Part shown: positions 31,482 to 50,779 of the stretch, piece after piece
How the letters are laid out: each line of letters starts with the position of its first letter
Numbering within the stretch: position 1 is the stretch's first letter
DNA from: a phage
Length of the DNA: 64,000 nt
Assembly: GCA_012474735.1 (NCBI GenBank)
Contig: GCA_012474735.1_4085.1
Direction: 5' to 3' (one strand)
The notes under the pieces: model-generated
The model's input: only the letters and a program-made list of their open reading frames with translations
Databases searched by the model: none
What the model was told of the DNA's origin: nothing
Translations under genes and position numbers: made by a program

Positions 31482-31576
31482 AGATACACCTATGCACCCT
31501 GTGGGCTAGTTTTTGTCTATGCGTATATAATAGCAAAGGGACTGACCGGAGTCAATCCCTTTTTTATTCTTTTTTG
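31482..31576 (-). repeat. conserved intergenic unit, copy 1 (GCACCCTGTGGG motif plus hairpin/T-run terminator)
   Basis: ~95 bp shared with copies at 33745, 36754 and 40786; hairpin 31536-31561 then T-run. Confidence 0.55.
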
Positions 31577-31777
31577 TTAGATGATTCTCCAATCTTCTAC
31601 GATGATTGTAAGATACCGGACCAACGATTCTAGTGATTCGTGTTCTCGATAGTCTGCCGCTCCACCAGCGGTACAAGTACAGCCGATTAAACCATTTTGC
31701 AATTCCTTAATCTGTACATCGATAAGGTTGGCTTTAGCTTCTTTCAGTACTTCAACCAGGGCGAGAGCGATAGACAT
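31577..31777 (-). CDS. hypothetical protein (66 aa)
   Basis: ORF; RBS ggagtaaaacattATG; promoter 31833-31860. Confidence 0.6.
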   Translation of the reverse strand: MSIALALVEVLKEAKANLIDVQIKELQNGLIGCTCTAGGAADYREHESLESLVRYLTIIVEDWRII

Positions 31778-31832
31778 AATGTTTTACTCCAAACTATTGG
31801 CGGGAGAACTATTCCCCCGCTCTATGTAAAAC

Positions 31833-31860
31833 ATTATACATTACTGGTTAGTACTGTCAA
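31833..31860 (-). promoter_or_regulatory. sigma70-type promoter (TTGACA-N16-TATAAT)
   Basis: rc reads TTGACAgtactaaccagtaatgTATAAT; hairpin GCGGGGGAAtagtTCTCCCGC downstream. Confidence 0.55.
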
Positions 31861-31867
31861 ATAGTTT

Positions 31868-32125
31868 TTATGAAATATCTTCGATGTAGTCGGCCCATTT
31901 CATTTTTTCAGTACTGTCAATTGCTACCGGATTATTTGGATCAAACCATTCACCATTCCCGCAATACATACCCACGGCAACGGTTTTATATCCATCCTGT
32001 GCAGTACTCCACGACATAGCACGATAGATATGGCCTTTAACTGGTTGCAATACTGGTAATGTTTTATGGTCTTCTACGTAGGCCATAGCTTGAGGATTTA
32101 CCCGATATTGTGTGAACTGTTCCAT
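31868..32125 (-). CDS. hypothetical protein (85 aa)
   Basis: ORF; RBS ggggaaacataATG. Confidence 0.6.
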   Translation of the reverse strand: MEQFTQYRVNPQAMAYVEDHKTLPVLQPVKGHIYRAMSWSTAQDGYKTVAVGMYCGNGEWFDPNNPVAIDSTEKMKWADYIEDIS

Positions 32126-32153
32126 TATGTTTCCCCTTGTAGTTAGTAAAGTT

Positions 32154-32182
32154 ATTACATCAGTACTATCAAGCTATGTCAA
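32154..32182 (-). promoter_or_regulatory. sigma70-type promoter (TTGACA-N17-TGTAAT)
   Basis: rc reads TTGACAtagcttgatagtactgaTGTAAT. Confidence 0.5.
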
Positions 32183-32201
32183 TAGTACTGAAATAAAACT
32201 T

Positions 32202-32426
32202 TTAGATTAGATTATTGATGCCGTTGATGGTAGACTCGCTTTCTTCTTTCTCCCATTGGCGGTAGTACTTCCATGCTTCATGATATGTGGCGATTAGTTC
32301 ATCTTTTTGATCCTGAGTACATGCCAGTATTGAATCACGGTGAGCGGTGTTATAGATAGAATCGAATGATTTCTTCTCTTCTGCCAGGTTAGCTACTTCC
32401 CGCATCAGTTCATCAAAGTTAGCCAT
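32202..32426 (-). CDS. hypothetical protein (74 aa)
   Basis: ORF; RBS aaaggagtaataaaATG; promoter and 5' hairpin GGGGGAGatatCCTCCCCC upstream. Confidence 0.6.
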   Translation of the reverse strand: MANFDELMREVANLAEEKKSFDSIYNTAHRDSILACTQDQKDELIATYHEAWKYYRQWEKEESESTINGINNLI

Positions 32427-32493
32427 TTTATTACTCCTTTTAGTGGGGGAGGATATCTCCCCCTATGCAAAACATTATACTTTGTTTTAGTTA

Positions 32494-32757
32494 TTATGCA
32501 AGTACTTTTTTCATATAAAGATTATATTCTACACCGCCGTAACCTTCTACGATGATATGTTTTGCGTTATCACGTTTGCACATAGTGAAACCGTTGTTGA
32601 TGTGTTCTGCATTTTCCAGGGCGACATCACCGATAGCGGCACATACGGCACTAATAACAGTATTCCGCAAAGTACTGGTATCATTAGCGGTCATAGTAGT
32701 TTGCAGTACTACGTTGTCGTATACGTGTGCATTGATAGTGATTTCGATAGTGTTCAT
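32494..32757 (-). CDS. hypothetical protein (87 aa)
   Basis: ORF; RBS ccaggagatacaccATG; promoter upstream. Confidence 0.6.
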   Translation of the reverse strand: MNTIEITINAHVYDNVVLQTTMTANDTSTLRNTVISAVCAAIGDVALENAEHINNGFTMCKRDNAKHIIVEGYGGVEYNLYMKKVLA

Positions 32758-47691: not shown

Positions 47692-47778
47692 TTTTATTAC
47701 TCCAGGTTATAGGCGGGAAGAGTTCCCGCTCTCGATGTAAAACATTATACGCCTTTAAACATAGTTTGCAAGTACTTT

Positions 47779-48045
47779 TTATTCAAGTACTGCAATCTTT
47801 TTAGTACGGTACACGGTCACGCGGTTGCCCTTTCGGTCGAGCTTTATTTCTACCACTCGACGCGATACACTATCGGGACTTTTTAAGGCCGCTAACCAGT
47901 ACTGTAATGATCTGGCGGTACTACGCTTTACAATGGCCCAACGTTTACCACGTTCCGATTGTACGCCCATATCTTTAAACGTTGCCCCGTCCTGGCGTGC
48001 GGCGATCCGAGCTTGTTCACGCGTCGCAAAATACTTAATATTCAT
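47779..48045 (-). CDS. hypothetical protein (88 aa); paralog of 35348..35743
   Basis: start at MNIKYFATREQARIAAR with RBS aagggcaacagcATG. Confidence 0.6.
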   Translation of the reverse strand: MNIKYFATREQARIAARQDGATFKDMGVQSERGKRWAIVKRSTARSLQYWLAALKSPDSVSRRVVEIKLDRKGNRVTVYRTKKIAVLE

Positions 48046-48133
48046 GCTGTTGCCCTTATCGTTGGTGTATGAATAAAACACTATTATAAAGTACTATCCC
48101 CGTGCAATAGTACTTTAAATAAATTCTATTCTA

Positions 48134-48373
48134 TTACATTCCAACCATTGCCGCACGGATCGCAGTAGTGCTATATTTGAATCCGTCCGGTGTTTTATCT
48201 TGTCCAGTCTGTTCTAAAAATAACATCATATGACGGGCCGCATCATTGCGATTAGTGCTATCGTTAATAAAGTCCTGGGCCAACCGGTATAATGATTCAT
48301 CGTTATTAATCCAAAGGCTTACATTCCAATGAGTTTTGTTTTTGTGACCTAAGAACATTTTTGATTTAGCCAT
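48134..48373 (-). CDS. hypothetical protein (79 aa)
   Basis: ORF; RBS agaggattaaaaaATG; promoter TTGCAT-N16-TATAAT. Confidence 0.6.
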   Translation of the reverse strand: MAKSKMFLGHKNKTHWNVSLWINNDESLYRLAQDFINDSTNRNDAARHMMLFLEQTGQDKTPDGFKYSTTAIRAAMVGM

Positions 48374-48465
48374 TTTTTAATCCTCTTATATAGTGGGGAA
48401 CTATTCCCCACCTGATAGAAAGTATTATACTTGTTTTAACTTAGTATGCAAGTACTTTATTAAAC

Positions 48466-48828
48466 TTATTTGTAAATTTTGCCACTGTCAGCCCATACCA
48501 GGAAACGATGCATATTATCCCATGCATCTTGTTTTAAATTTAAACCGTGCAATTCCTCAGTAGTTGCCATCCCTGGTACTGGCTTACTACACACCGCGAA
48601 ATTTTCGCCCATGTACTGATAAACCATCGTTAAATCATTTGAGATCATTATATGGATCATTGAATCAAGCATCAAAGTAGCGGCGTATTGTTCACGCTTA
48701 AGCGGCAACATTGCAATAAGTTCCCGATAAGCTGCAATGTGAATTTTTACAGTTTCAGCCGGAAGACCTTTCATCTCTTCGCGGAAGTTTACCAGGTTAA
48801 GCATGATTTTAGTGATTTGAGTCGCCAT
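48466..48828 (-). CDS. hypothetical protein (120 aa)
   Basis: start at MATQITKIM with RBS aagagagattaaaacgATG; promoter and 5' hairpin upstream. Confidence 0.55.
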   Translation of the reverse strand: MATQITKIMLNLVNFREEMKGLPAETVKIHIAAYRELIAMLPLKREQYAATLMLDSMIHIMISNDLTMVYQYMGENFAVCSKPVPGMATTEELHGLNLKQDAWDNMHRFLVWADSGKIYK

Positions 48829-49191
48829 CGTTTTAATCTCTCTTAATGTGTAGCGGGAAGTGTTCCCGCTCTCGATGTAAAACATTATACGCTTTTATCA
48901 GTACGGTGCAAGTACTTTCTACAAATACTTTTAAAATAGTTTTCTTTCTATATAGGGGAACTATTATTCAGTACTGCAACCATCCAGGGGAACTATCTTT
49001 CTATATAGGAGTACTATTATTCAGTACTGAATCAATCAACCAAATCACTACTACACCCCGTAAAACGGCCTCAGACGCATTCTAACGCATTAATACACCC
49101 AAGCTATACATTTGCACCATTCCAATCATTCCAGGGCTTTACAGGCCGTTTAAACGCGTTAAATTATTTTCAATTATTTTGTTTTTAGCTA

Positions 49192-49219
49192 TTGACTCAG
49201 TACTAAAAAAGCGTATAAT
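49192..49219 (+). promoter_or_regulatory. plus-strand sigma70-type promoter (TTGACT-N16-TATAAT)
   Basis: TTGACTcagtactaaaaaagcgTATAAT followed by ACCCCAGGGGGTGGGAAGATCCGTC. Confidence 0.5.
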
Positions 49220-49406
49220 TACTACATAGACGCGAGAAAGCGGATACCCCAGGGGGTGGGAAGATCCGTCCAAAATTCAAGATATAAAAAAAGGATACAC
49301 TCCCGCACCCTAGCAGGTTAACGCACTTTCTCAGTACTGAATTATAGTACCATAGTCCGGCCCAGGATGGCAAGCAAATTAATTAAAACTTTTTTCATCC
49401 AGGGTA

Positions 49407-49434
49407 TTGCTTTATTTTTCCAGTACTGTATAAT
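49407..49434 (+). promoter_or_regulatory. plus-strand sigma70-type promoter (TTGCTT-N16-TATAAT)
   Basis: TTGCTTtatttttccagtactgTATAAT followed by AGCCCACCGGGTGCATAGTTACGCCC. Confidence 0.5.
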
Positions 49435-50779
49435 AGTTCCATCAAGTCGAGAAAGACTCAAGCCCACCGGGTGCATAGTTACGCCCAAAATTCAGTACTG
49501 AAAAAATTTTTAAAAATATCCGTCCAGGCCGTTGACATTGCCCCCAGTTTATAAGATAATGATTCCAGATTCAGAAAAATCTAACTCCAGATACTGCGGG
49601 GAAACTATCCCCACGCGGTAGGGGAACTATTGGAAAAAACAAAATAAAATTTTGATTTAGCCGTCTATACTTCCAGACGTGTAACCATCTAGCCGTTTAG
49701 CCGTCTAGATGGATAGCCATCTTTACTTCCAGACTTCTGGAGGGCTAGACATATCTACGCCCAAAATCCATCCAGGGTAACTACGCCCAAAATCCGTCAG
49801 TACTATACCATAGATCTATCTTTTGAAAGGGAGTATTCAGTACTGCCATCATAGCCCTCACTATGTTACCCTAGGAGGATGAAGACTATCATGTAGTACT
49901 GAATACTGTTAGAGGGAATCCACCAGCTTGTGCTGGTGGCATAATGCTTTAGATTAAAATCAGTACTGACACCATTCTGTTAATATCAGTACTGTTATTA
50001 CGATTTTCATATGAGGTTCAAAAAGATGTACCACCACAGGAGGAACTATCTTTTCTGTACTGTCTCACGACAGGAGGTAGAGTAAATGAATTGTTCGCAG
50101 CAACTCATCTCTCTATGTAGAACATTATACAGTACTGAATCATAATGTCAATAGCTTTCTTTCATTATTCAGTACTGATATTCTTGAGAACTACCCGACT
50201 ACAAACATCATTATATCCCACAAATCATAAACGTCCCAACGTAAATTTCAACTTTCGAAGATCCAACTTTTATTTCATAGGTACTCCAAAATTTTTAGGA
50301 TCGAGATTTAGGATGGAGTACTAACCAACTTTTTGCTGGAGCCTCAAGGGGTAATTGAATTTTACCCCGAAGGGTAAAGGGGTAATTGAAATTAAGGTGA
50401 AAGTAATAATTCAGTACTAATCATTGCGTGATTACTTTTGATTACATTTGATGTAATTTGAAAAATGGAAAAGGAGCTTGGAAACTACAAAGTACGGCAG
50501 ACTTCCTCTGCCTACTTAGTGGCATATCAGTACTGAATCCTTCCCTAGCATTCTTGAGCAATCTTGTCTATACTAATCAGTACTGAATCATATATAATCA
50601 TTCTGTGATTCTACGGTGCTCATATAAATGTTTATATATGATTACTTATGACTACCTATGATTACGGGGTTTAGCCTGGGGAGAATCCTAGTGATCGCAT
50701 TTGTCCAGGCTGAATTTTAACAATTCGCCTGTACATAAAGGTTGTTCACTAGGAGCTTCCCCTGTCTACTTGTGTTTAA

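Follow-up and report, generated by a model that had tools for sequence, protein, structure and literature searches.

The 64,000-nucleotide stretch of phage DNA analysed here (the window; NCBI GenBank assembly GCA_012474735.1, contig GCA_012474735.1_4085.1) contains ten copies, and an eleventh degenerate one, of a short transcription unit in which a sigma-70-type promoter is directly followed by a module of about 50 nt with the almost constant core CCCAYNGGGUGC. The units occur in both orientations relative to the genes, are confined to the direct terminal repeat (DTR) of the phage and recur in related phages of other host genera. Within the module a 5′ hairpin covaries from copy to copy, and the core can pair in two alternative ways. 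The pattern of base changes among the copies supports the view that the module is a self-contained structure operating at the level of RNA. On this basis we propose a family of multi-copy immediate-early small RNAs or mRNA leaders, which would act through the invariant core in the manner of sibling small RNAs or of a decoy and not as a nut/put-type antiterminator; we rate the chance that this proposal is correct as about even.

Patchwise identities of 90–95% to the Escherichia jumbo phages PBECO4, 121Q and phAPEC6 (Asteriusvirus, about 350 kb) identify the window, by sequence, as DNA of an Asteriusvirus-type (Rak2-like) jumbo coliphage. The matching DNA of Escherichia phage vB_Ec-M-J is annotated as a 21,525-bp direct terminal repeat (1–21525). 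Anchoring (L001 1–600 on window 30290–30889 and the L001 end on window 50127–50516; L numbers denote sequences of relatives) delimits the repeat in the window, its lower boundary (30,080) being an extrapolation over ~210 bp, and by homology to vB_Ec-M-J the physical genome end lies near 50,516. The roughly 50 small early genes of this DTR lie on the minus strand, and all module units of the window are located inside it.

The motif CCCAYNGGGTGCA, with at most one mismatch, is found nine times in the window against 0.11 matches expected, a number reached in none of 100 shuffles, and all matches fall between 31.4 and 49.5 kb. A covariance model of 49 positions, built from 16 copies, recovered ten units, all between 31,479 and 49,489 and none elsewhere in the 64 kb. 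These are exactly the ten positions at which a previous sequence-only reading had listed a recurrent promoter-proximal motif, which is therefore real. The degenerate copy (~49317–49286, minus strand) was missed by the model at E ≤ 0.1. Each unit starts with a recognizable promoter (−35 TTGACA, TTGACT or TTGCTT; spacer 16–17; −10 CATAAT, TATTAT, TATAAT or TAATAT), whose −10 element ends 21–28 nt ahead of the CCC. In four minus-strand units with TTGACT, the −35 element lies within the terminator hairpin of the upstream gene (AAAGGGATTGAC-TCCG-GTCAGTCCCTTT), namely in the upper 5′ arm of the stem and not in the loop as had been stated; this arrangement is not shared by the CATAAT-type units.

The same units are widespread among Rak2-like phages. 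When 2.9 million viral contigs were searched for exact matches to CCCACAGGGTGC-N5-TGTA, 15 stretches emerged, all of which, except two short contigs, are Rak2-like jumbo phage genomes of 345–378 kb, and the matches of each genome form one ~20-kb cluster, or two where the record holds both repeat copies. A blastn search with one unit gave matches in Klebsiella phages (RaK2, K64-1, Muenster, fENko-Kae01), Salmonella phages (Munch, SE_PL) and Erwinia phages, which correspond to the terminal repeat wherever the termini of the relatives are annotated. The covariance model collected 115 copies from 21 sources, ~10–12 per repeat; the module is kept in relatives among the phages of Klebsiella, Salmonella, Erwinia, Cronobacter, Pectobacterium and Yersinia, always in the terminal-repeat cluster, and no match was obtained in the ~44 kb of the window outside the DTR or in ~19-kb non-DTR stretches of L003 and L004. 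A correctly placed sigma-70-like promoter precedes 108 of the 115 copies (mean 10.55 of 12 matches; spacer 17 in 90), and the distance from the −10 end to the CCC is 20–22 nt in the short and 25–29 nt in the long form of the module (see below). The core is constant between genera whose flanking sequences have diverged past recognition. In the relatives' records examined, several units are overlaid by hypothetical-protein annotations. A core-like sequence, CCCACTGGGTGCG, with no evident promoter, was also noticed at L002 17036–17048 (Muenster ~17–29), less than 30 bp from the genome end predicted by PhageTerm; it may be a chance occurrence, since the genome ends of vB_Ec-M-J and fENko-Kae01 show nothing like it.

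The module begins 2–5 nt past the inferred transcription start and extends from about +3 to +50. It consists of a 5′ hairpin (P1), a linker of 3–5 nt and the core; GCACCCTGTGGG is a module sequence usable as a target for hybridization probes. P1, a stem of 3–5 bp located 3–5 nt upstream of the CCC, is present in all 26 distinct long-form copies and is built from 16 different stems (position-constrained shuffles: mean 9.1 of 26, maximum 16). Among them are GAG/CUC, GGC/GCC, GACG/CGUC, AGCA/UGCU, CCUG/CAGG and GUCA/UGAC, closed by purine-rich loops such as AGAUAA, GAGAAA, AGAACAA and GGACACAA; the sequence thus varies freely and the pairing is kept by compensation. The sequence-only reading had suggested aligning the copies and testing for covariation. 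In 98 distinct model-aligned copies all four P1 pairs vary on both sides, with 142 cells changed on both sides versus 59.6 ± 6.2 in shuffles and a covariation score of 0.385 versus 0.217, neither value being reached in any of 500 shuffles, and P1 is paired in 85.8% versus 31–58% in slid controls. About a quarter of the copies represent a short form, in which P1 is replaced by an unpaired A-rich stretch (GAAAACAA, AGAAACAAG).

Two further hairpins involve the core. Hairpin A (ACCC-N3-GGGU), the small CCC-NNN-GGG hairpin recognized in the sequence-only reading, is paired in 97% of the copies and almost invariant; it stays paired at two loci that carry independent C-G to U-A double changes (ACCU...AGGU; L017:7801, L008:4521) and in several copies with a CCU...GGG wobble, and the RNAalifold consensus of the alignment consists of hairpin A alone. 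Hairpin B (GGGUGCR-N4-YGYRYCY) is paired in 88–89% of the copies versus 27–58% when slid. Its variation resides entirely on the 3′ strand, with pairing kept: one pair is U-A or U-G in every sequence, another is G-U or G-C with at most one exception, and a third shows six C-G to G-C double changes. As G·U is the commonest pair at four positions, hairpin B can form only on the transcribed sense and not on the opposite strand, which argues for RNA and not for duplex DNA or a cruciform. Because the GGG is common to both, hairpins A and B exclude each other; their computed energies are nearly equal (mean −3.8 and −2.7 kcal/mol for A and B, respectively), and of 93 distinct cores 50 have the lower energy in B and 40 in A. 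A generic "best hairpin anywhere" statistic gave no distinction between real copies and shuffled sequences. Three other candidates were rejected: a long outer stem around the module (AGAUA/UAUCU, AGACG/CGUCU) and a pseudoknot between the P1 loop and the 3′ tail fit some copies and fail in many relatives (e.g. L002 12045 and L003 17192), and a tiny open reading frame (ORF) of 11 amino acids, possible in one copy, is not conserved.

At six loci with known gene direction, 36 of 60 units are sense and 24 antisense, and nine convergent pairs are found (Table 1 gives the units of the window). Sense units follow the upstream gene's terminator and precede the next gene's main promoter, into which they read, as unit 2 does; this promoter begins, in units where the scan found one, 32–63 nt past the module, roughly as claimed earlier. 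Solitary antisense units continue with a 24–28-nt AU-rich stretch, usually including AGUACUG, and end in a bidirectional terminator shared with the upstream gene, from which RNAs of ~95–105 nt are predicted. They would thereby have the layout of terminator-ended (Hfq-type) small RNAs, whereas the sense units have no terminator. Unit 6, the best match to the model, would accordingly constitute a stand-alone small-RNA-like gene with a predicted RNA of ~95–100 nt. Every other antisense unit faces a partner in a convergent pair; the pairs fall mainly within the terminal 1–3 kb of the repeat, which is non-coding, and one or two of them are located near the physical end in every relative examined. 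In the window, the modules of units 7 and 8 converge at a distance of 16 nt, and hairpin B of unit 11 is followed by seven T residues and so constitutes an intrinsic terminator there. Given these varied downstream contexts, the promoter and the first ~50 nt of RNA are the only constant part. Convergent pairs in Klebsiella, Salmonella and Erwinia relatives flank a palindrome, e.g. GAGAATGATAATCATTTAC, which closely resembles the Fur-box consensus GATAATGATAATCATTATC; no such palindrome is present in the DTR of the window.

Table 1. Module units and further features. Positions are those of the window unless a relative's sequence (L002, L003, L005) is named; bits are covariance-model scores.
Feature	Position	Strand	Type	Parts and remarks	Bits
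Direct terminal repeat	~30,080-50,516	both		Homology to annotated DTR of vB_Ec-M-J	
Unit 1	31479..31562	-	Short form (no P1 stem), sense	Module 31520-31479; terminator hairpin 31562-31535 with -35 TTGACT 31555-31550; -10 TATTAT 31532-31527; core CCCACAGGGTGC 31505-31494	37.5
Unit 2	33742..33823	-	Long form, sense	Module 33742-33790; -35 TTGACT 33823-33818 in same type of terminator hairpin; -10 TAATAT 33800-33795; P1 UGAG/CUCA; core 33768-33757	52.0
Unit 3	36751..36834	-	Short form, sense	Module 36751-36796; terminator hairpin 36834-36807 with -35 TTGACT 36827-36822; -10 TATTAT 36804-36799; core 36777-36766	39.2
Unit 4	39107..39190	-	Long form, sense	Module 39107-39155; -35 TTGACA 39190-39185; extended -10 TGgCATAAT, CATAAT 39167-39162; spacer CCAGTACTGG; P1 GACG/CGUC; core CCCATAGGGTGC 39133-39122	47.0
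Unit 5	40784..40872	-	Long form, sense	Module 40784-40832; terminator hairpin 40872-40845 with -35 TTGACT 40865-40860; -10 TATTAT 40842-40837; P1 UGAG/CUCA; core 40810-40799	49.7
Unit 6	44778..44915	+	Long form, antisense to genes	Module 44813-44861; -35 TTGACA 44778-44783; -10 CATAAT 44801-44806; core 44835-44846; AU-rich linker with CAGTACTG, then bidirectional terminator 44887-44907	54.8
Unit 7	47258..47334	+	Short form, antisense, convergent with unit 8	Module 47297-47334; -35 TTGACA 47258-47263; -10 CATAAT 47281-47286; core CCCACCGGGTGC 47308-47319	27.1
Unit 8	47350..47430	-	Long form, sense	Module 47350-47397; -35 TTGACT 47430-47425; -10 CATAAT 47407-47402; P1 UGGC/GCCG; core CCCATAGGGTGC 47376-47365	48.8
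Unit 9	49192..49274	+	Antisense, non-coding DTR end, convergent with unit 11	Module 49226-49274; -35 TTGACT 49192-49197; -10 TATAAT 49214-49219; P1 CGC/GCG; variant core CCCCAGGGGGTGG 49247-49259	51.0
Unit 10	49407..49489	+	Long form, antisense, points to physical genome end	Module 49441-49489; -35 TTGCTT 49407-49412; -10 TATAAT 49429-49434; P1 AGUC/GACU; core CCCACCGGGTGC 49463-49474; hairpin B partner CGCCC	49.7
Unit 11	49286..49373	-	Degenerate	Weak promoter 49373-49344; core CCTGCTAGGGTGCG; hairpin B AGGGTGCGGGAGTGTATCCT 49311-49292	
Convergent pairs in window	47297+/47350-; 49226+/~49317-				
Solitary antisense units	Window 44778-44915; L002 5045+ and 12022+; L003 11000-			Promoter, AU-rich stretch and terminator present	
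Fur-box-like palindromes	L003 1028-1062, 7304-7331; L002 14615-14653, ~15740-15790; L005 19374-19401, 19912-19946			Between convergent units	
Perfect-consensus sigma-70 promoters	50151, 47095, 41330, 40295, 39713, 38599, 37561, 36582, 36242, 35816, 33385, 31860	-		Promoter scan	
Second 5′-UTR hairpin	~33650-33690, 36640-36690, 40640-40700	-		Upstream of real ribosome-binding site; distinct from module	

The proposed mode of action can be outlined as follows. On entry of the DNA, the host RNA polymerase would synthesize the module from the strong sigma-70-type promoters, either as an immediate-early RNA of ~100 nt (solitary antisense units and convergent pairs) or as the 5′ domain of early mRNAs in the case of sense units. 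The module would then act as RNA, independently of the downstream sequence, and its core would most likely be recognized by, or act as a seed for, a single conserved partner (protein or RNA, from the host or the phage, and common to the Enterobacterales), while the many strongly transcribed copies would supply the RNA in bulk, as with sibling small RNAs or a decoy. Recognition of a conserved partner is suggested by the invariance of the core across phages of seven host genera while P1 varies, by the many copies behind strong promoters and by the independence from downstream sequence. A small RNA family was among the alternatives named in the sequence-only reading and fits best. That the conserved element behaves as an RNA structure is seen from the P1 covariation, the sense-only hairpin B and the double changes in hairpin A. 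We further consider it possible, though only as a tentative extension, that the core captures or reprogrammes a conserved host component (for instance RNA polymerase, an RNA chaperone or nuclease, or a defence sensor) in the first minutes of infection, the CCC/GGG/YCY pairing operating as a co-transcriptional switch.

Several points weigh against this proposal. Transcription itself with its start sites, the RNA ends and the abundance are all inferred from sequence, and so are the partner itself and any action in trans. The alignment behind the P1 covariation counts was fitted to the model's own structure. Hairpins A and B are weak, with 4–7 bp only, and as the 5′ strand of hairpin B consists of G and U and its variation is one-sided, transition drift would also keep it paired. 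The sense units lack a recognizable 3′ end ahead of the following promoter and gene. Among the ten largest ORFs of the DTR, Pfam revealed no RNA-binding or antiterminator domain as a candidate partner of the core, and since the core is a perfect 4+4 inverted repeat, a DNA-binding dimer is conceivable instead.

The sequence-only reading had preferred a resemblance to nut/put-type antitermination sites. In this view, the nascent module would bind its own polymerase in cis, by RNA alone as in put, which engages the beta′ zinc-binding domain of RNA polymerase, or together with an N-like protein as in nut, and thereby suppress termination or pausing so that the DTR terminators are read through. Its location right after early sigma-70 promoters, in DNA that contains intrinsic terminators, would suit this function, as would two small hairpins and an invariant core in phages whose hosts share the same RNA polymerase, and putL likewise directly follows its promoter (PMC9378689). 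We nevertheless regard antitermination as unlikely. Matches to boxA (CGCTCTTA / GCTCTTTAA; searched as YGCTCTTWA with at most one mismatch) are at chance level (55 versus 52 expected) with none inside a unit, and the 115-copy alignment contains no boxA-type sequence. A boxB consists of a 5-bp stem with a GNRA-like pentaloop (GAAAA, GAAGA, GACAA), whereas the loop of (A/G)CCC-N3-GGGU comprises 3 nt (AYN) in nearly all copies and 4 nt in a few. No N-type antiterminator was detected by Pfam among the ten largest of the roughly 50 DTR ORFs, where a GNAT acetyltransferase and a weak match to a kinase were the only findings. With ~50 nt and stems of 3–5 bp the module also differs in size from put RNA. 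Moreover, the 40% of units in antisense orientation run into a terminator within ~25 nt or into a convergent partner, the opposite of what a processive antiterminator requires; four terminators lie just upstream of units and not downstream; and, since a dozen promoters of perfect consensus were found on the DTR's gene strand, read-through seems little needed. Taken as a whole, the earlier interpretation is partly supported.

Doubtful, too, is a role as a 5′ stability or processing determinant, in which P1 would shield early transcripts from 5′-end-dependent decay by RNase E and the core would be a processing or nuclease site timing this decay. A hairpin beginning 2–5 nt past the inferred start, free in sequence and kept in pairing, is what one expects of a protective 5′ structure, and the sense units do form the 5′ part of longer mRNAs. 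However, about a quarter of the copies have no P1 stem, the antisense and terminated units have no message to protect, and the invariance of the 12-nt core across genera would be left unexplained.

It is improbable that the units are passive repeats, i.e. promoter–terminator cassettes of the PeSL (promoter-early stem-loop) type spread and homogenized by recombination in a plastic early region, with an RNA devoid of its own function. The terminator hairpin does overlap the −35 element in four window units, intergenic regions of ~250 bp including the main promoter and the 5′ untranslated region (UTR) are similar between paralogues, and the PeSLs of T4-like phages are cassettes of this kind. Gene conversion, however, would homogenize P1, yet 16 different compensating stems are found; the core is invariant between genera with fully diverged flanks, and orientation and distance to the promoter are fixed. 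Quite improbable is a DNA operator, also named in the sequence-only reading, in which a dimeric repressor or roadblock protein would occupy the ACCC-N3-GGGT palindrome (about +27 to +38) and shut off the early promoters. The core is indeed a perfect invariant 4+4 inverted repeat at a fixed position after the promoter; on the other side, its orientation towards the promoter never changes and its invariant GC extension is asymmetric, the adjoining P1 covaries as a hairpin, the CCT...AGG double changes alter both half-sites and keep the pairing, and hairpin B relies on G·U pairs. Finally, a role in replication or at the DNA ends, in which the transcripts, especially of the terminal convergent pairs, would prime or open the DNA (R-loop origins) or label the repeat as a processing substrate, agrees with the confinement of the units to the DTR and with the convergent pairs near the physical end, but is very improbable: nothing points to an unwinding element, a set of ten dispersed origins would be out of the ordinary, and priming needs no covarying RNA fold.

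Further features of the window were noted beside the units. Twelve perfect-consensus sigma-70 promoters (TTGACA-16/17-TATAAT) on the minus strand, an exceptionally dense set, serve the small genes of the DTR (Table 1). The transcripts from the main promoters start with another conserved hairpin, GGGG(G)AAA-N-(U)UUCCCC (e.g. gagagggggaaatggttctccct, caaggggaaacggtttcccct), which may function as a 5′ stabilizer. Two identical terminator hairpins AGCCCACCTTAAACAGTGGGCT with T-run, 728 bp apart (44009–44030 and 43281–43302, minus strand), suggest a duplicated gene–terminator cassette. One DTR ORF (38186–38542, minus) encodes a GNAT acetyltransferase (Pfam E = 4e-9), and another (33842–34483, minus) has a weak, sub-threshold protein-kinase match, its counterpart in relatives being annotated as putative protein kinase. 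The terminal ~1.6 kb of the DTR (48900–50516) is essentially non-coding, contains three units and further promoters and is dense in short direct repeats, including tataggggaactattattCAGTACTG twice; an inverted repeat with a 14-bp stem built on CAGTACTG lies at 49961–49994, and the sign of the GC skew switches at ~50 kb. Across the whole window the palindrome AGTACT occurs 262 times versus ~22 expected from base composition, a twelve-fold genome-wide enrichment which is unusual for a phage, CAGTACTG 59 times versus ~1 and GTAC 651 times versus 204. AGTACT sites (e.g. 113, 2181, 5282 ... 63314) are found in coding regions, in promoter spacers (CCAGTACTGGCATAAT) and just upstream of −35 boxes (AAAAAGTACTTGCA), and AGTACT follows the RNA module at a median distance of 8 nt in 61% of the units versus 21% background.

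The ~20-kb terminal repeats of Rak2-like jumbo phages contain about 50 genes of unknown function and are thought to carry the host-takeover programme; to our knowledge, nothing is known about the regulation of these genes. A structured RNA with its own strong promoter and 10–12 copies per repeat would be a major product of early infection, and its 12-nt core and compensatory stems can be mutated directly, which offers an experimental handle. If the core binds a host factor, an RNA-based mechanism would be added to the takeover by jumbo phages, and if it captures a host component, it would be an RNA-based takeover device on the first DNA to act; if the module targets RNA polymerase, put-like RNAs would have a second representative, unrelated to the first. 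The module can also enter RNA family databases and improve annotation.

Database searches related the module to no catalogued RNA: Rfam gave no match at gathering score in the whole window and none on any unit at E ≤ 5 (31000–50600), ARAGORN found nothing on the units, and a unit had no match in 5,426 complete E. coli genomes, so that no host homologue was found. Resemblances of 7–8 nt to tmRNA PK1 (ACCCAAGGUGCAU), 16S rRNA (GAGGGUGCAAG) and the T-box sequence we take to be chance. In the literature searched (phAPEC6, CBB, fENko-Kae01, fEgEco12, Asteriusvirus transcriptomes and the core sequence), no description of the module was found. Among characterized systems, lambda-type nut sites share with it an A-rich segment ahead of a small CCC...GGG hairpin in the vicinity of early promoters; they differ by their boxA and GNRA-like pentaloop, whereas the module has an AYN triloop, no boxA and an orientation untied to operons. 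The put RNA of phage HK022, ~70 nt with two long stem-loops (PMC9378689), is likewise a nascent structured two-hairpin RNA just downstream of an early phage sigma-70 promoter, and a put-like module would need no dedicated downstream sequence. However, put forms a triplex and is present in two copies per genome, always in sense upstream of terminators, while the module has 10–12 copies on both strands, often with a terminator next; this distinction is drawn from the published description of put and not from a sequence comparison.

The arrangement of the units comes close to the PeSL cassettes of T4-like phages (Arbiol et al. 2010, PMC2839356; Comeau et al. 2014, PMC4122927). In both cases a stem-loop or terminator lies directly upstream of, or overlaps, a near-consensus sigma-70 early promoter, as seen in units 1, 2, 3 and 5, and in a T4-related myovirus the many repeats are scattered among the small ORFan genes of a plastic early region. 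A PeSL promoter, however, leads straight into the Shine–Dalgarno sequence and start codon of the next gene, whereas in the units the promoter leads into the folded module of ~50 nt, beyond which comes a second promoter, a terminator or a convergent unit, and 40% of the units point away from the genes. Regarding the RNA itself, the sibling small RNA families of bacteria, such as Qrr1-5 and OmrA/B, are paralogues with one invariant stretch and their own promoters. The module shares with them the invariant stretch, the variable rest, the own promoter and, in some units, the AU-rich stretch and intrinsic terminator at the 3′ end; unlike them, it is phage-encoded, occurs in up to 12 copies within 20 kb of a terminal repeat and in many copies has no terminator of its own. 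We therefore regard the module, as judged from its sequence, as a probable new RNA family within a known general kind, the structured early phage RNAs, here attached to PeSL-like cassettes.

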